Positions 1 to 48,661 of a stretch of DNA of 53,931 bases are shown here, one piece after another; the first letter of the stretch is position 1, and every line of letters begins with the position of its first letter. Source of the stretch: a virus (Duplodnaviria; Caudoviricetes); IMG/VR virus record IMGVR_UViG_3300042936_001056, positions 1 through 53,931 of that record, one strand, 5' to 3'. A program made the translations under genes and the position numbers. Below the pieces are notes generated by a model that saw nothing but the letters and a program-made list of their open reading frames with translations, was not told the origin of the DNA and ran no database searches.

Positions 1-2
1 GT

Positions 3-494
3 GAAGACTTTAAATCATTTTCTAATATGTATACAGATTATATATTCAGATGTTGTATAGAGTTAATGACTGAAGGGTTACCAGATGGTGGACAATATGT
101 ATCTATTACTTTAACTGATATGATATTGAAATATATCTATGAGAATGTATTTGAAAATAGAATACTTCAAAAGAAGTTTAATATTAATGAATCAGATGAG
201 AGGATGGATCGTTTCGTAGATAAGGTATTACAGTTCTTAATTGATGATACATATCAGATAGGAGAAGATTTAATACGTGTACCATTCTTAGATGAACCAG
301 TATCTATTAGTTATAAGAGTAAAAGAGTACATACCGTAATAGAGATTTTAATGTATGTAGATGAACCACCTAAACCATTTACTCATTACTGTATTGATAC
401 CTATGGATTAGATTCACAAACCATTAATTCATTATGGGTTAAGTATAGAGAATTCCTTATGGAGAACTTCTATAAATTAACAAAAAGATATTAA
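3..494 (+). CDS. 5'-truncated protein carrying one 'domain A' repeat after an INES linker
   Basis: Frame is open from position 3. Contains INES-DERMDRFVDKVLQFLIDDT...YCIDTYGL..LWVKY, matching the repeats of 2302..3906. Confidence 0.7.
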   Translation, partial: EDFKSFSNMYTDYIFRCCIELMTEGLPDGGQYVSITLTDMILKYIYENVFENRILQKKFNINESDERMDRFVDKVLQFLIDDTYQIGEDLIRVPFLDEPVSISYKSKRVHTVIEILMYVDEPPKPFTHYCIDTYGLDSQTINSLWVKYREFLMENFYKLTKRY

Positions 495-498
495 TTTA

Positions 499-530
499 TT
501 TGTGTATGTCGTTTTTTATTACTACCTTTG
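499..530 (+). promoter_or_regulatory. Bacteroidota-type housekeeping promoter (-33/-7)
   Basis: TTTG 499-502, 20-nt spacer, TACCTTTG 523-530. Confidence 0.65.
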
Positions 531-533
531 TAT

Positions 534-702
534 TGTTGGTGGTAATACCGAAACAGGCGTACATATAGATATATAGTATGAAGGGATCAAAGGTCGGTTG
601 GTCTGAAGTTTCCCTTATAAAAAAATATAAGGCAGGTCGGAGTATACCCTCTTAGAGAAGAACCTGTTTCTCTGACCCGTTTCGAGGATACCCTCACCAA
701 CA
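534..702. ncRNA. Candidate structured ncRNA (~170 nt) with paired termini
   Basis: No ORF. Pairings: TGTTGGTG/CACCAACA at the ends, CGAAAC/GTTTCG, AAGGGA/TCCCTT, GGTCGGAG/CTCTGACC. Flanked by convergent promoters. Confidence 0.5.
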
Positions 703-705
703 TAA

Positions 706-737
706 CAAAGGTACGAAAAATTTTCGACACTACCAAA
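706..737 (-). promoter_or_regulatory. Bacteroidota-type promoter pointing into the structured element
   Basis: Minus strand TTTG (734-737), 20-nt spacer, TACCTTTG (706-713). Confidence 0.65.
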
Positions 738-762
738 TATTTATTAATATATTTATAAAAAA

Positions 763-1632
763 ATGAAGGTAACCATTAAAGGGATCATTAAGGAATCGAA
801 TGATAATAGACAAAGATATTATGATAAAGTATCTAAGGTAATACGTCCACCATACTTTGTGGATCTAGAGACATTAAGTGTACCACAGGATGAGTGGAGA
901 GATGTATTTAAGACGTTATATAAACAAAATGTATTAGTGTCTACATTCTATCGTGATAAACAAATAACAGGTGGTATAGTAACAGATAAGGAAACTAATA
1001 TATTATACTATGAAGGTGAGGGTGGTGACTATGTGATCAGAGAATTCGATAAGTTTAATAATGTGACATATCTTTATAAAACTGATGGTAGAGGAAATGA
1101 GTATTGGGAGAAATCCAAATTTAATGATCAGGGTGAATCTATATACTATGAAGATTCTAAAGGTAGAGTATCTGATGTAAGGGATCAAAATGATATCAAT
1201 GAGTCTGTGTATAGTGATAAACTAATAGATAAAATAATAGATACATTGAAACCACCATTTAGGTATGATTTAGAATCATTAGGGATACCAAGAGATGAAT
1301 GGGATGGTATTATATCTAAAGTATTTAATGAGGACTTAGTGATGAAGGATATAGTAGACGCCATATACGTTACAGATATATATGGACAATCTAGATATAT
1401 GGAATCTAAAAACGGTAATTATTTTATTGATGAATACGATGATGATGGTAATGTAATATATAAGGAAAGTAATTATCCTAACTCTGGTACTACATATAAA
1501 GAATGGTTTACATATGGTAATGGAAAACTTATAGACTATAAAGATAGTAATGGTAGAGGGTTGGATCAGTATTTAAGATCCTCTGAATATTATACTAGAA
1601 AAGAGAGTGTAAAAAATAGATATGGGTATTGA
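763..1632 (+). CDS. Putative virion-internal protein with two 'domain B' repeats joined by INES
   Basis: Leader MKVTIKGIIKES. Two copies of DKxxxxxxPP(Y/F)xxDLExLx(V/I)PxDEW...Y(Y/K)EDS(K/N)G-like module. ATATTTAT at 737 and 749. Confidence 0.7.
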   Translation: MKVTIKGIIKESNDNRQRYYDKVSKVIRPPYFVDLETLSVPQDEWRDVFKTLYKQNVLVSTFYRDKQITGGIVTDKETNILYYEGEGGDYVIREFDKFNNVTYLYKTDGRGNEYWEKSKFNDQGESIYYEDSKGRVSDVRDQNDINESVYSDKLIDKIIDTLKPPFRYDLESLGIPRDEWDGIISKVFNEDLVMKDIVDAIYVTDIYGQSRYMESKNGNYFIDEYDDDGNVIYKESNYPNSGTTYKEWFTYGNGKLIDYKDSNGRGLDQYLRSSEYYTRKESVKNRYGY

Positions 1633-1680
1633 CTTTTTAATTTAATATAGTTAATATTGTATCATAGTTGTTTGATATAT

Positions 1681-1893
1681 TAATCTACGGGGTTCATTCC
1701 TTCCTCCCCACCCTATGGAAGGAAAAGGTGATTCTGATGGACAATTGTTTGTCATCACTGGACAACGTAGATTAGATGAAGGGACGTAACGTATTGAACA
1801 AAAAGATATGGTTACACTTCATCACATAAGAAGGGATAATATAATCATCGTAACAGTGTGATCTGTAAAACGAAAAAAATTATCCCTTTTTTT
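1681..1893 (+). ncRNA. Candidate multi-stem ncRNA ending in a stem plus U-tract
   Basis: Stems 1681-89/1766-74, 1697-1704/1717-24, 1775-81/1817-23, 1831-40/1879-88 followed by a T run. TTGACT-17-TAATAT upstream (1629-1657). Confidence 0.5.
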
Positions 1894-1904
1894 ATTCCCT
1901 ATAA

Positions 1905-1936
1905 TTTGACATTGTAATATTTAATCAGTATATTTG
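1905..1936 (+). promoter_or_regulatory. Bacteroidota-type promoter
   Basis: TTTG 1905-08, 20-nt spacer, TATATTTG 1929-36. Confidence 0.65.
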
Positions 1937-1971
1937 TAGTATGAAAAATACCTAAACCATATATATAGTCC

Positions 1972-2270
1972 GTAGGGGGAGAGGGGTACTTTGTGTACAC
2001 TATTGTAAATACCTCTCCCCTAGAGGGGGACCCCCTCAGGTACCCCCTACATCACCCCCCTTCCCTCTGGGGGTGTTTTGACGTAAAGGGGGTAGGTGAT
2101 GTTGTCCATGAATTTTCCAGGAAATTTTAAGGTTTCAGTTATAACCCTTTTCATTTATAAAGGTGTCTTATAACCCTTTTTAGTTATGTTCATTTTATTC
2201 TTTTGTTCAGTGACAATGAACACCCATTTCTGGTGAACTGAGGGTACCCTTCAAAATTTTCCAGGAATTT
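1972..2270. other. G/C-run-rich inverted-repeat cluster with short direct repeats (ncRNA, origin or packaging-site candidate)
   Basis: Inverted: GGGGAGAGG/CCTCTCCCC, GAGGGGG/CCCCCTC, ACATCACC/GGTGATGT. Direct: AATTTTCCAGGAA (2111, 2255) and TTATAACCCTTTT (2139, 2168). Confidence 0.5.
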
Positions 2271-2301
2271 TTTCGTTTCCAAATATTTCAATATTTATAA
2301 T

Positions 2302-3906
2302 ATGTATATGGAAGAAAATAAGAAAAGATTTTTAGATAAGATTATTGAGTGGTTAGTTATTGACACTGTGATTGATTATGAGAATAGGAAATGGTTCCCT
2401 ACTTTCTTACAATATATGGAAGATTATCCTATATCACTACGTCCCTTAGATATTAATAATCTTTCTTTATTCCCGATTGTTCGTTTCTACGATTATTGTA
2501 GGAAGATATATGATTTAAGTGTAGAGGAAATAGAATATTTATGGAGTAAGTATTCAATTATTATTATAGATAAATTTAATAATGAGAAACCTATCAACGA
2601 ATCGGAGGATAGAAGAAAAAAATTCTTAGATAAAGTTGTAGATTTTTTAGTTAAGGACACTAAAGTAGATTATGATAAAAGGACGTTATTTTTTCCTTTT
2701 ACTTATAAGAGATCACTTAGACAAGGTACTAATAATCTCACACCTTTTCATAAACTTCTTTTTGATTCATATATTCCTATAGATGGTTTTATGGAATACA
2801 TTAAAGAATTGTATGATATTACTTCAATAGAGGACATCACTCATGTTTGGGAGACATATAAGGTTATTATGAATAAAATCGTATTTGGTGATAATGCCAC
2901 CCCACTCTACTTTAATGAATCTGAAAAAGGTTCAATCAATGAAGATAGTAGACAAGACTTAATAGATAAAGTAGATGAGAGGGTAAAGAAATACTTAGAT
3001 AAGGTTGTTGATTTCATTATTAAGGAAACTGTAATTGATTATGGAATAGATAAATTTAATCCAGTTATTAAGGATGAGGTACTATGGTATCCACCGTTTA
3101 GTGAAAGATCATATTCTCACCGTCAGTCAATGTATAATACGGGTGCCAATTATGATTTCAATAATTACTGTCAAGAAGTGTTTAGTATATATGATGAGGG
3201 TGAACAACTTTATGTATGGGAGAGGTACAGAAAATTATTGGGGTTTAAAATGAGAAATATGATGATTAATGAATCTGAGGATAGGAAACAAAAATATTTG
3301 GATAAGATTCTTAAGTGGTTTGTTGACGATACTATAATTAGATATGAAACGGGTGTTATAATATATCCTTTTTCTTCCATAGGACCAACGGGTAAACGGT
3401 TACCTAGTTTCTTTGATAATATAATAAATAAACTTTCGATGAATTTCCCATCAGATATTCATATATACTGTAGGGATACTTATGGGTTAAACCCTGATGA
3501 GACAAAATATATTTGGGATAAGTATAAAAAAATTATTAGGGATAGATACGATAAAGAATCGATGATACATCATCGAGGTGAACCCATAAATGAATCTGAT
3601 GATAAGAAACAGGCTTATTTAGATAAGATTGTTGATTGGTTGTTTAAGGATACCGAAGTTGGTAATAGTTGGTTTAACCCACCTTATTATTATCCAGGCA
3701 GTTCCGCAGGTAGGACTGGATTTAAATCGGTTTATGAACACACATTTGGTTTATCGACAAATAATACTTATAGTGGGTTAGATTCTCAGTTAATTTATTT
3801 TGATAGTTACTGTAAGAACAATTATGGACTTACTGGTGAGGAGACTAAAATTGTTTGGTTTGAGTATATGAAGAAATTAAAGGAGTCTTATGATTGGAGA
3901 TTTTAA
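2302..3906 (+). CDS. Polyprotein-like protein with five tandem 'domain A' repeats separated by INE(S/D) linkers
   Basis: Five copies of (F/Y)LDK(I/V)xx(W/F)xxx(D/E)T...YC/YI...W..Y. ATATTTAT at 2291. Start may be 2308. Confidence 0.8.
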   Translation: MYMEENKKRFLDKIIEWLVIDTVIDYENRKWFPTFLQYMEDYPISLRPLDINNLSLFPIVRFYDYCRKIYDLSVEEIEYLWSKYSIIIIDKFNNEKPINESEDRRKKFLDKVVDFLVKDTKVDYDKRTLFFPFTYKRSLRQGTNNLTPFHKLLFDSYIPIDGFMEYIKELYDITSIEDITHVWETYKVIMNKIVFGDNATPLYFNESEKGSINEDSRQDLIDKVDERVKKYLDKVVDFIIKETVIDYGIDKFNPVIKDEVLWYPPFSERSYSHRQSMYNTGANYDFNNYCQEVFSIYDEGEQLYVWERYRKLLGFKMRNMMINESEDRKQKYLDKILKWFVDDTIIRYETGVIIYPFSSIGPTGKRLPSFFDNIINKLSMNFPSDIHIYCRDTYGLNPDETKYIWDKYKKIIRDRYDKESMIHHRGEPINESDDKKQAYLDKIVDWLFKDTEVGNSWFNPPYYYPGSSAGRTGFKSVYEHTFGLSTNNTYSGLDSQLIYFDSYCKNNYGLTGEETKIVWFEYMKKLKESYDWRF

Positions 3907-30142: not shown

Positions 30143-32608
30143 TTATTCACTTTTTATAATAATTTCATCTTTTGGTTTGGAATAACTTATTTTGATGGTA
30201 CCATTTTCTTTAATTTTACCACTTAAAATTTCTTCAGAGATTGGATCTTCTATGTGTTTTTGTATTGATCTATTCAAAGGTCTGGCACCATAATCTTCAC
30301 TATAACCATCATCAACTAAGTAATCCCTAACAGTTTTATTAATGATTAGGTTATACCCTATTTCACTAACTCTATTCTTAAGTTTCTGTAATTCTAAATC
30401 TACGACTTTACCAATTTCTTCTTTGGTAAGTGATTTAAATATGATTACATCATCTAATCTGTTAAGGAATTCGGGTGGGAATTGTTTTTTCAATTCATCA
30501 GTTAAAAGACTTTCTTTAATAGAATCTTCCCTTTCAATTTTAGATTTAGTGCCAAAACCTACACCTGTTCCAAAGTCTTGTAATTTTTTAACACCCACAT
30601 TAGATGTCATAATTACCATACAATTTTTAAAGTTTACTTTCCTACCAGAACTATCTGTAAGTTGTCCATCATCTAATAACTGTAACAATGTGTTATAAAT
30701 TTCTTTATTTGCCTTCTCTATCTCATCAAATAGTACAATTGAGTAAGGTTTTCTTCTAACCTTCTCAGTTAATTGTCCACCATCACCATGACCAACATAT
30801 CCTGGAGGGGACCCAATAAGTCTTGATATCGAATGTTTTTCTTGAAATTCTGACATATCTAACCTAATCAATGAATCCTCATCACCGAAAAGATATTCCG
30901 CCAATCTTTTAGCAATATGTGTTTTACCCACACCAGTTGGACCTAAAAACATAAAAGTACCTATTGGTTTTTTTGGGTTACGAATACCTACTCTATTTCT
31001 TCTAATGGATTTGGCAATTTTTTCTAACGCAATTTCTTGTCCAATAATAGATTTTTTTAACTCATTCTCTATCTCTAACATTCGTTTACCCTGATCACCA
31101 CTAATTCTTTTTAGTGGAATACCTGTCATAGATGAAACTACTTCATTAACATCCTCTATAGTGACAACAGTCCTTTCGTTATTTAAGTTAGTAACCCATT
31201 TTTCTTTTTCAAATATAAGTTTTTCATTTACTTCTCTTTCCTCATCTCTTAATTTCGCAGCCTCTTCGTATTTTTGTTTTTTAACAACTTCACTTTTCCT
31301 GTTCTTTATCTCACCAATCATCTCCTCTAATTTACTTATAGATGCGGGTGGTTTGATAGATAGTTGACTTTTGGATCCAATCTCATCCATAATATCAATT
31401 GCCTTATCAGGAAACTCTCTATCAGTAATATACCTATCTGCCATTTTAACACAATGTACTATAGTTTCTAATGGGTAAGTTACTTTATGGTAAGTTTCGT
31501 ATGAAGACTTAATTTTATCCAATATTTGAATTGTTTCCTCTATTGTAGGTGGATCAATTAATACTTGTTGAAATCTTCTGGCCAATGCACCATCTTTTTC
31601 TATATGTTCTCTATATTCATCTAATGTGGTTGCACCTATCAATTGGATATCACCTCTAGCCAATGCGGGTTTTAATACGTTAGCCGCATCCATAGAACCC
31701 GACGCATTTCCAGCACCAACCATAGTATGTAATTCATCAATAAATAAAATCACATTGTCAACCTCCATTAATTCATCGACCACACCTTTTATCCTCTCCT
31801 CGAATTGTCCCCTATATTTTGTACCTGCAACTAAAGATGTTAAATCTAATGATACAACTCTTTTATCTAATAAAGTTCTTGGTGCATCACCCTGTGCAAT
31901 TTTTAGTGCCAACCCCTCAATGATAGTTGTTTTACCTACACCAGGATCACCTATCAAAACAGGATTATTTTTTTTCTTTCTCGCCAAAATTTGGGCAACC
32001 CTTTGTATTGACTCATCTCGACCAATAACGGGATCAATTTTACCTTCAGACGCTCTTTTAGTAACATCCACAGAAAAATTATTTAAAATAGGAGTTTCAT
32101 TAGATTTAGTACTACCTTTTGGTTTCGGTATTTTACTAAAATTGTCTTCATCATTCCCACTTACTGGTTCTATTGAGTTCTCAATAGAAGTTTTATAACT
32201 ATTATAATTTATCTTCATACCTTTTAATATACTACTTATGTCATTTTTTACTTTTAAAGTTGCCAATAAAATATGTTCGGTGTCCAAATAATCGTTATTC
32301 ATTAAATCACATTCTTTTTCCGCACCTTTCATAATATTTTCAGTAACAGTCTCCAATGGATATTCTTTTTTGTTTAGTAACATAGTATTGTAGTCATCCC
32401 TATCTTTATGTAATTTCCTCTCAATACTCTTATGTAACTTATCAACATCTACACCCATATTAATTAACACTTTAATCGCATTATTATTATAATCATTTAT
32501 CAATGAGATGATTATATGTTCAATCTTTACTTCATTATCCCCATAAAATTTAGCCTGTTTGATGGACATATTTATGATTTTCTTCACCTTAGGCAAAATC
32601 TTTTTCAT
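30143..32608 (-). CDS. clpC: ClpC-type Hsp100 AAA+ ATPase (Clp_N, two AAA modules, UVR-like middle domain)
   Basis: GDPGVGKT, FIDELH, QKYEEAAKLRDEE, GPTGVGKT, GSPPGYVG, LFDEIEKA, GARPL. Start refined to MKKILP. Confidence 0.92.
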   Translation of the reverse strand: MKKILPKVKKIINMSIKQAKFYGDNEVKIEHIIISLINDYNNNAIKVLINMGVDVDKLHKSIERKLHKDRDDYNTMLLNKKEYPLETVTENIMKGAEKECDLMNNDYLDTEHILLATLKVKNDISSILKGMKINYNSYKTSIENSIEPVSGNDEDNFSKIPKPKGSTKSNETPILNNFSVDVTKRASEGKIDPVIGRDESIQRVAQILARKKKNNPVLIGDPGVGKTTIIEGLALKIAQGDAPRTLLDKRVVSLDLTSLVAGTKYRGQFEERIKGVVDELMEVDNVILFIDELHTMVGAGNASGSMDAANVLKPALARGDIQLIGATTLDEYREHIEKDGALARRFQQVLIDPPTIEETIQILDKIKSSYETYHKVTYPLETIVHCVKMADRYITDREFPDKAIDIMDEIGSKSQLSIKPPASISKLEEMIGEIKNRKSEVVKKQKYEEAAKLRDEEREVNEKLIFEKEKWVTNLNNERTVVTIEDVNEVVSSMTGIPLKRISGDQGKRMLEIENELKKSIIGQEIALEKIAKSIRRNRVGIRNPKKPIGTFMFLGPTGVGKTHIAKRLAEYLFGDEDSLIRLDMSEFQEKHSISRLIGSPPGYVGHGDGGQLTEKVRRKPYSIVLFDEIEKANKEIYNTLLQLLDDGQLTDSSGRKVNFKNCMVIMTSNVGVKKLQDFGTGVGFGTKSKIEREDSIKESLLTDELKKQFPPEFLNRLDDVIIFKSLTKEEIGKVVDLELQKLKNRVSEIGYNLIINKTVRDYLVDDGYSEDYGARPLNRSIQKHIEDPISEEILSGKIKENGTIKISYSKPKDEIIIKSE

Positions 32609-32614
32609 ACGCGA

Positions 32615-32646
32615 TTTGTTTTTTATTATAAATATCCTTATCTTTG
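32615..32646 (+). promoter_or_regulatory. Bacteroidota-type promoter overlapping the opposite-strand ATATTTAT of clpC
   Basis: TTTG 32615-18, 20-nt spacer, TATCTTTG 32639-46; ATAAATAT at 32628-35. Confidence 0.65.
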
Positions 32647-32669
32647 TATTCAAATTTAATAAATAAATT

Positions 32670-34220: not shown

Positions 34221-35489
34221 ATGAATAGTTTAGATAAAAAATATACTGACTTACTTCAAGACATTATTGATAATGGAATAACAAAGTCTGATCGAACAGG
34301 AACTGGTACTCTTTCAGTATTTGGGAGACAGATAAGACATAAAATGAGTGAGGGGTTTCCTTTAATAACAACAAAAAAAATGTATTTTAAGGGAATTACT
34401 ACTGAATTGTTGTGGTTCTTACGTGGAGATACAAACATTAAGTACCTGATAGACAATGATTGTCATATCTGGAATGGTGATGCAATGAAGAACTATGAGT
34501 ATCAGAATGGAGAAATTGATTGGGGTCCTTTTATTACAAAAGAAGAATCATTTGTTGAAAAAATCAAAACTGATGATGAGTTTGCTAAAAAGTGGGGTGA
34601 GTTAGGTCCAATTTATGGTGCGCAATGGAGAAATTGGTTAACATATAAACCTTCAAATAATACGGGAAGTTTCTATCAATCGGGTAATATAGACCAAATC
34701 CAAAACCTAATCAACGACCTCAAAACAAATCCAGACTCAAGACGATTAATGGTTTCAGCTTGGAATGTTGGTGAATTAGACCAAATGACACTTCCTCCTT
34801 GTCATTATGGATTTCAAGTTTATACAAGAGAGTTGAGTACAAAAGAAAGATGGGAATGGTATGGTAAAAATGGTGGTCCATATGGTGAGATTAAATTAAT
34901 TGGAATGATGGTTTATGAAAATGAAAAAGATAATTCACATATAAAATCTTGGTTAGAAAAATGGGCACCTAATGTACCAACCAGAGCAATCTCTTTAATG
35001 TGGAATCAACGTTCAGTAGATACATTCTTAGGTTTACCATTCAACATTGCATCTTACGGTTTACTACTTGAAATCATTGCAAAAGAAGTTAATATGGTTC
35101 CTGATGAATTGATTGGTAATTTAGGTGATACACATTTGTATTTGAATCATATTGAACAGGCAAAGGAACAGATTGGTATGGATTTAACTGATGAGGAGAG
35201 ATACCATATTTGGTTTGGTAATAATTATGAAACAGGAATGGAGAGATTTTTTGACCCAAATAATCTACCTAATTTTGATGATGTTTATTATGAACCAACC
35301 CCAAGCCGAACAAGAGAGCCGTACGCATTACCACAACTTTCCTTTTTAGACGAGTATCATTATATGAGTGATACTGAATTAGTAGGATCTATAGAATTTT
35401 CTGAAAAAATAAATAAATTTAGACCCGATTTCTTTAAAATAGAAAATTATCAATCACACCCATCAATTAAAGCACCTTTAAGTAATTAA
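34221..35489 (+). CDS. thyA: Thymidylate synthase with two insertions
   Basis: DRTGTGT, ELLWFLRG, LGPIYGAQWR, SRRLMVSAWN, LPPCH, QRSVDTFLGLPFNIASY, GDTHLYLNH. Confidence 0.95.
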   Translation: MNSLDKKYTDLLQDIIDNGITKSDRTGTGTLSVFGRQIRHKMSEGFPLITTKKMYFKGITTELLWFLRGDTNIKYLIDNDCHIWNGDAMKNYEYQNGEIDWGPFITKEESFVEKIKTDDEFAKKWGELGPIYGAQWRNWLTYKPSNNTGSFYQSGNIDQIQNLINDLKTNPDSRRLMVSAWNVGELDQMTLPPCHYGFQVYTRELSTKERWEWYGKNGGPYGEIKLIGMMVYENEKDNSHIKSWLEKWAPNVPTRAISLMWNQRSVDTFLGLPFNIASYGLLLEIIAKEVNMVPDELIGNLGDTHLYLNHIEQAKEQIGMDLTDEERYHIWFGNNYETGMERFFDPNNLPNFDDVYYEPTPSRTREPYALPQLSFLDEYHYMSDTELVGSIEFSEKINKFRPDFFKIENYQSHPSIKAPLSN

Positions 35490-46691: not shown

Positions 46692-46720
46692 TATAATAGT
46701 AATAAAGTATAAAGATAAAA

Positions 46721-48619: not shown

Positions 48620-48661
48620 GTTTTTTTATAAAAGTTTAATATTTATTATAAAAACTAACAC

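Follow-up and report, generated by a model that had tools for sequence, protein, structure and literature searches.

Two facing candidate small-RNA genes behind Bacteroidota-type promoters in a probable giant lake-water phage

The DNA analyzed here (the window) is an entire IMG/VR virus record of 53,931 bases with a CheckV completeness of 16%. Among its products are a large terminase, a capsid protein of the Gp23 type and a portal of the T4 type; given these and the low completeness, we regard the window as only a piece of a T4-like phage of very large size. The cultured phages closest in portal protein, Microcystis phage Mel-JY01 (42% identity) and Flavobacterium phage immuto (35%), are both distant, and a blastn search of window positions 1-2400 against cultured phages gave zero matches. 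The stretch of interest lies between the open reading frame (ORF) at 27-494 and the gene at 763-1632; no relative of the protein encoded by the latter was confirmed among the viral contigs searched. Lake-water metagenomes contain the stretch; in 20 DNA runs, half or more of the sampled words were found. As judged by eye, the genes of the window are not preceded by Shine-Dalgarno sequences, and a Bacteroidota host therefore fits. Most likely, the stretch belongs to a giant lake-water phage of Bacteroidota. The units described below are set between genes, in what is the variable region of a T4-like phage.

A 19-nt inverted repeat brackets the stretch, with arms at 523-541 (TACCTTTGTATTGTTGGTG) and 695-713 (CACCAACATAACAAAGGTA) that are complementary at 17 of 19 positions; in a repeat search, the arms extend to 45 nt at 71% (497-541 and 695-739). 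Each arm carries the arrangement TTTG-N20-TACCTTTG, as a preliminary description of this DNA had held for both this motif and the repeat, and we take this arrangement to be a Bacteroidota-type promoter. The consensus for the Bacteroidota housekeeping sigma factor is TTTG at -33 and TAnnTTTG at -7; both motifs, which by this definition are separated by 19-21 nt, occur at the two sites with a spacer of 20 nt. The putative left promoter occupies 499-530 on the plus strand (-33 TTTG at 499-502 and -7 TACCTTTG at 523-530), and the putative right promoter occupies 706-737 on the minus strand (-33 TTTG as the complement of 734-737 and -7 TACCTTTG as the complement of 706-713), so that the two face each other. 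The assignment draws on the pattern match and on its enrichment: TTTGN{19,20}TANNTTTG is found 11 times in the window against 1.19 expected, a count reached by 0 of 100 shuffles, and several of these matches stand 5' of genes. Gene 13528 (minus strand) is preceded by a promoter very similar to the right one. The left promoter is kept with small changes in 36 distinct relatives, and the right promoter is retained in all seven distinct viral-contig variants, where the -7 element reads TAnnTTT[G/A] by eye.

The stretch appears to be noncoding. The earlier statement that it contains no ORF holds for the plus strand, on which we found none of 30 amino acids or more; on the minus strand there is a single 49-amino-acid ORF with a TTG start (587-736), which is not kept in relatives, the common variants carrying an in-frame TAG (frame read by eye). 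Similarly, an ATG at 578 opens 25 codons in the window and 7 in relatives. With no frame kept, we rejected a coding reading. Rfam searches of the whole window at the gathering score returned nothing, and at E values up to 10 on positions 400-2400 they returned only chance matches to eukaryotic snoRNA and miRNA models, so that the search suggested at the outset gave no match to 6S RNA or to any other model. ARAGORN found no tRNA or tmRNA. A tRNA-like reading, raised by a T-arm likeness at GGTTGGAGTCC, was rejected because no stem partner is present and ARAGORN was negative.

The stretch is more stable than shuffled sequences on both strands, the 211-nt interval giving z scores of -4.04 (plus) and -3.72 (minus). 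When folded singly, however, the two halves do no better than shuffles (z of -1.35 for the left half and -0.27 for the right half), which argues that the excess stability of the whole is due to the inverted repeat. What stands from the preliminary description is a conserved noncoding stretch flanked by two facing host-type promoters, for which RNA genes are the best reading. We consider it likely that there are two such genes, short and facing each other, each served by its own host-type promoter; we call the left one RNA-A and the right one RNA-B, and our best guess is that their products are trans-acting regulators or decoys.

Relatives of the right half were collected by word searches. A 24-base word matched nine viral contigs, representing seven distinct sequences including the window, and an 18-base word matched 111 metagenome loci. 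Of the 120 loci examined, viral ones included, 20 were unrelated chance matches and the remainder were relatives; the other 18-mer sites fell in open reading frames of unrelated sequence and were set aside as chance coding matches. Full flanks were available at 90 loci, giving 66 distinct sequences, in which the left neighbor of the RNA-B body was of the RNA-A type in 40 and of a second type in 9, the other 17 including cases in which a gene terminator or simply the end of a protein gene lies there (e.g., locus L206). Since the neighbors vary in this way, the right half is an independent unit. In many relatives (L205, L206, L347, L360, L371, and L375-L386), we also observed the word (T/G)AGTTATTAACA 50-60 nt beyond the RNA-B promoter, often within an A+T-rich hairpin.

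RNA-B would be transcribed on the minus strand, from about position 702 to about 619, and would comprise a stem-loop domain at its 5' end, a body that hardly varies, and a terminal hairpin. We infer these ends (619-702, read right to left) from the alignment of relatives and from pair counts; the alignment holds 61 relatives (1 of 62 was left out), 49 of them distinct. The 5' helices pair 699-701 with 679-681, enclosing a hairpin (692-695/684-687), and a further hairpin follows (668-673/654-659). The body (639-678) is fixed at 36 of 40 positions in the 61 sequences, 18 of these positions (646-663) being the search word and hence invariant by construction. Position 681 pairs with 699 as C-G in 35 of the 49 distinct sequences and as U-A in 12, with none unpaired. 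In the terminal hairpin, 645-650 pairs with 629-634 around the loop UACUCCGACC, in which ACUCCRAC would be presented; this 6-bp hairpin is rich in G-U and is followed by AUA and seven U residues (625-619). CCUUAUA and the U run behind the hairpin probably stop transcription; a generic terminator scan flagged the 3' end of neither RNA-A nor RNA-B.

Two models of RNA-B were scored against the 49 distinct sequences. Model 1, a three-way junction, is 94.2% paired, its outer helix showing C-A in 17 of the 49 rows. Model 2, which contains the terminal hairpin, is 94.6% paired versus 91.3% in shuffles, with 0 of 500 shuffles as high, and has a covariation score of 0.224 versus 0.162; many of its pairs are G-U. 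The model 2 helices are 94.6% paired on the minus strand versus 74.6% on the plus strand, a comparison biased toward the minus strand because the helices were chosen from minus-strand folds. The alignment fold is likewise stronger on the minus strand (-40.2 versus -33.0). In contrast, the C/U variation at 638 fits plus-strand pairing better, giving C-A on the minus strand in 17 of the 49 rows, and so does the Y at 664. Because of these two sites and the origin of the helices, the minus-strand call rests mainly on promoter layout. A pairing of the RNA-B 5' end with its own 3' element was tried and rejected, as it fails in L205 and L206.

RNA-A would occupy roughly positions 535-612 of the plus strand (ends placed from the conserved core and local helices), begun by a related promoter and a related 5' domain composed of GUUGGUG, a hairpin and CGAAAC. 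Its helices are a 5' helix (535-537/552-554) around a hairpin at 541-549, a second hairpin at 558-580, and a 3' hairpin GATCA...TGGTC at 585-603. The core, GTTGGTGG..CCGAAACAGGCGTACA..ATAGTATGAAG..ATCA.AGGTCGGTTG, is conserved in 36 distinct sequences, and the inner stem of hairpin 558-580 varies on both sides at once between relatives (AUAU/AUAU, AUCU/AGAU, AUC/GAU, and AAC/GUU). In at least nine relatives the 3' hairpin is followed by 6 to 8 T residues, a run that is absent in this window. The local helices of RNA-A are backed by the local-helix covariation test described below. Among 73 loci we found no RNA-A without RNA-B (four real matches, all paired), and the independence of RNA-A is therefore less sure than that of RNA-B. 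A loop-loop contact between AGGUCGG of RNA-A and CCGACCU of RNA-B was considered and rejected because the two sites do not covary in relatives, among which no covarying contact between the two RNAs was found.

The preliminary description had offered, among other readings, a single RNA of ~170 nt with closed termini, with a size reminiscent of 6S RNA or a protein-sponging decoy. Such an RNA would be a structured plus-strand transcript of ~170-190 nt with paired ends, 6S-like, a protein sponge, or a processed 3'-untranslated-region or intergenic element, produced from an upstream promoter or by read-through from gene 27-494. In its favor, the stretch as a whole folds with a z score of -4.0 on the plus strand, the differences between the arms among relatives are G-U pairs on that strand (U-G in 29 rows and G-U in 20), and several polymorphic sites are wobble compatible on the plus strand only. 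The comparison was made on 40 aligned full-length relatives, 35 of them distinct. The long-range stem together with CGAAAC/GTTTCG is 91.1% paired versus 90.8% in column shuffles (105 of 500 shuffles as high), its covariation score is 0.079 versus 0.077 in shuffles, and one of its pairs is broken in 29 of the 35 rows. The local helices within the halves, in contrast, are 90.0% paired versus 85.8% in shuffles (0 of 500 as high), with a score of 0.116 versus 0.057. Thus, the covariation check left the closing stem of a ~170-nt RNA unsupported and supported the local helices. Furthermore, position 681 changes together with 699 (C-G in 29 of the 35 rows, U-A in 6, and unpaired in none), which argues that the supposed arm of the closing stem pairs with its neighbor and not with the far arm.

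Other observations bear on the same question. The 5' part of the long-range stem is the -7 box of the left promoter, so that it would be absent from a transcript started there, and in 26 of 66 contexts the right half is present but the left half is missing. No match to 6S RNA or to another Rfam family was seen even at E values up to 10. The likeness to 6S RNA extends to the combined interval of ~190 nt and to ends that are paired in the fold of this one sequence; unlike 6S RNA, however, the stretch has a branched fold without a rod and central bubble, no Rfam match, and a closing stem that does not covary. We therefore hold the single closed RNA to be highly unlikely. The inner stems named earlier are present in the fold of the window, but not all of them hold in relatives: CGAAAC/GTTTCG has a pair broken in 29 of the 35 distinct relatives, and AAGGGA/TCCCTT falls in a variable segment. 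A sense/antisense pair had also been suggested; the two RNAs would indeed converge, but they differ and would meet 3' end to 3' end. On the two-gene reading, the inverted repeat exists because both RNAs begin with a related promoter and a related 5' domain (GUUGGUG, a small hairpin, and CGAAAC), and a striking "closed" fold can be merely two related genes set head to head.

Short contigs of the runs that matched only positions 613-652 had foreign flanks, which prompted a search with TATAAGRCAGGTYGGAG that matched large phage contigs at 38 loci. The shared part is an 18-nt 3' element, ACUCCRACCUGCCUUAUA, followed by a U run; in the window it lies at 626-643 on the minus strand (minus strand ACTCCGACCTGCCTTATA, plus strand TATAAGGCAGGTCGGAGT), and in related phage contigs it forms the end of promoter-driven units 49-95 nt in length. 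Relatives fetched with a different word keep it as well. Read on the opposite strand, the units share a layout: a promoter of this same kind, a ~45- to 90-nt body, GAG-nnnn-CUCC(R)ACCU(G/A)(C/U)CUUAUA, and a U-rich tail. Dozens of other short promoter-driven units in related phage contigs of 60-300 kb end in this element, and units are found solo, in tandem, and face to face; at six metagenome loci (L217, L229, L234, L243, L297, and L312), the left half carries the same 3' element, in opposite orientation, behind the left promoter. In a complete 288-kb relative, which has terminal repeats, the element is present in seven copies, all on one strand; in the copies that we read, a promoter is aimed at the element from ~60 nt away, the other side lacks a promoter, and the ORFs flanking the units run the opposite way.

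We collected 36 oriented units, each of which was required to have an upstream promoter-like match. In 32 of these selected units, the element ends 49-81 nt beyond the end of the promoter pattern, and in 16 of the 36 a T run of at least 5 lies within 14 nt after the element. Among 38 distinct motif instances taken without selection, a sense upstream promoter is present in 14 (strict pattern) or 25 (loose pattern), versus 7 (strict) or 12 (loose) for a promoter directed inward from the opposite side. Thirteen instances lack even a loose match; of these, four look like chance matches to coding sequence, and most others keep the -7 box by eye. The sequence of the element is conserved while its pairing partner varies. 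Given the promoter layout and the orientation across units, we read the element as the 3' end of a promoter-driven RNA whose sense strand is here the minus strand. RNA-B appears to be one member of a multicopy, phage-only family with a common 5' domain, the 3' element, and differing bodies.

The family looks phage-only because the element is not above its control in host genomes: at one mismatch or fewer, the 18-nt element matched in 4 of 401 Bacteroidota genomes versus 5 matches for the reversed control, which is noise, and no genome in this sample of species had more than one match. A 15-mer word was too short, giving mostly chance matches; it has at least 120 matches in host genomes, and none of the matches listed showed the family layout, a result that carries little weight for host genomes. 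In the large relatives, three one-mismatch matches of the element reading GCAGGTTCGAGT (G007:107522, G009:75892, and G008:76893) look like T-arms of true tRNA genes. In Mel-JY01 and immuto, only three-mismatch noise was found for the element. In the accessible portions of the literature on small RNAs of Bacteroidota phages and of giant T4-like phages, nothing was found on this family, and we regard it as conserved and previously undescribed. To our knowledge, small RNAs of Bacteroidota phages are almost unstudied.

The units could also be read at the level of DNA. A promoter-plus-terminator cassette, repeated in the genome, would insulate neighboring transcription units by means of its facing promoters and shared terminators and would be a site of recombination at which genes are shuffled, with the short RNAs as by-products, in the manner of the PeSLs of T4-type phages. 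PeSLs are reported to be small composite terminator/promoter sequences tied to indels in hyperplastic regions (PMC4122927, PMC2839356). In favor of this reading, the units lie between genes of the variable region, are present in several copies per genome with unrelated neighbors, and occur solo, in tandem, and face to face, and in the complete relative the RNA-B-type promoter always points against the flanking genes. Compared by description, both are short repeated cassettes between genes that combine a stem-loop with an early promoter of the host type, and both lie in T4-like variable regions beside swapped, unrelated neighbors. They differ in that the promoter of our units is of the Bacteroidota type and fires into a conserved body of 50-90 nt (in the complete relative, against the flanking genes), and in that this body, with its covarying helices and conserved 3' element, is RNA-gene-like. 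Moreover, the RNA-B body is conserved far beyond what a promoter-terminator spacer needs (18 invariant positions outside the search word), its helices covary, and the sequence of the 3' element is kept though its pairing partner varies. We judge a pure cassette unlikely but worth keeping in view; a cassette role and an RNA role could hold at once.

A mobile or invertible segment, either a MITE bounded by terminal inverted repeats or an invertible segment that bears a promoter, like those of Bacteroides phase variation, had been put forward as well, and would account for a terminal inverted repeat of 19-45 nt and for related units at many genomic places. The "repeats" are, however, promoters with related 5' domains; the window contains a single copy and, beyond it, only a partial, promoter-like match; all 40 full-length relatives carry the interior in one orientation; and the interiors differ among units, whereas a single transposing element would leave similar copies. 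The inversion check, made on contigs of four runs, showed no joints, a weak point because contigs drop rare forms. We give this reading hardly any credence. Phages and prophages also carry face-to-face promoter or antisense-RNA units and convergent type I toxin-antitoxin pairs, which resemble the present arrangement in having two short transcripts from facing promoters. They differ from it in that RNA-A and RNA-B have no conserved small ORF on either strand, as a type I pair would, and are distinct genes meeting at their 3' ends, not the sense and antisense of one gene. Racr phage RNA anti-CRISPRs, which are reported to mimic host CRISPR repeats, are similar in being short phage-encoded noncoding RNAs, often in several copies (PMC10651486). 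By contrast, the 18-nt element is at noise level in the 401 Bacteroidota genomes, in which no CRISPR-repeat likeness was found, and RNA-B has no look-alike in 41 genomes.

Three RNA runs were read as contigs, in which strand and ends are not displayed and whose libraries may contain DNA. One (X21) covers the stretch by a 4,723-nt contig of ~90% likeness, which may be DNA; two others (X22 and X23) cover only parts of 727-1015, and gaps in cover carry no meaning. Six short contigs of X21, a marine metatranscriptome, match 613-652 only and have differing flanks (length 89-322 nt, depth 8-39). Since these six share only the 3' element, the family is also present in marine samples and in an RNA library.

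Returning to the two facing RNA genes, unmodified host RNA polymerase would read each of them from a consensus Bacteroidota promoter, and because such promoters serve the unmodified enzyme, both RNAs are probably made early in infection. We infer transcription from the promoter motifs, from sequence conservation, from helices that covary locally, and from the modular way in which the units occur; as to function, our best guess is that RNA-A and RNA-B act in trans as regulators or decoys, with the constant ends conferring stability and a binding handle and the body conferring specificity. A search of 41 Bacteroidota genomes for an RNA-B look-alike or a long target gave scattered matches only (best E value, 0.0145). 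Bacteroidota are not known to have Hfq and mostly do without Shine-Dalgarno pairing, and the usual models of small-RNA action may therefore not apply. A more specific proposal, to which we assign a slim chance, is a scaffold-and-payload system in which the constant 5' domain and the 3' hairpin displaying ACUCCRAC would be read by one protein, of the phage or of the host, while the variable body would pick the target; among the members, RNA-B would carry the payload under the tightest constraint. In a weaker form, the 3' tail ACCUGCCUUAUA would imitate the 3' end of 16S rRNA (...CACCUCCUUUCU in a Bacteroidota genome) and draw off a tail-handling factor; the likeness is weak, eight letters with a gap, and may be chance. 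A strongly conserved, multicopy, phage-only family behind consensus host promoters points to an early takeover or counterdefense function in abundant lake and marine giant phages, and the sequences collected form a concrete set for experiments.

Several further features of the window were observed. A copy of the motif ATATTTAT(A/T), reading ATATATTTATAA, lies at 746-757 (plus strand), directly 5' of gene 763-1632 and outside the RNAs. By eye, the motif is repeated 10-25 nt 5' of start codons, those of structural genes such as the portal among them (e.g., 746-757, 2285-2296, 46695-46705, and 48640-48650), and from this placement it is probably the late promoter of the phage clade. A protein module, NESEDR..KFLDKV..F..DT ... 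YGL...E....W.KY, has a single copy in ORF 27-494 and about five in ORF 2302-3906, and it matched zero Pfam families above the cutoff. The window also encodes a ClpB/ClpA-type two-ring AAA+ protein of 836 amino acids (30143-32653, minus strand) and a thymidylate synthase of 422 amino acids (34221-35489, plus strand), the Pfam match of which falls in two separate stretches, suggesting an insertion. On reading the ORF-free gap at 1633-2301, we noticed a G+C-richer island, ctacggggttcattccttcctcccc..., at 1651-1790. The same gap contains a second candidate small-RNA gene at 1905-2082 (plus strand), in which a promoter match (1905-1936) is followed by a G+C-rich stretch, a terminator-like hairpin (2056-2073), and TGTTTT; its fold has an energy of -51.2 kcal/mol (z of -1.08), and it is kept in four of the five relatives searched, at 94% to 69% identity.
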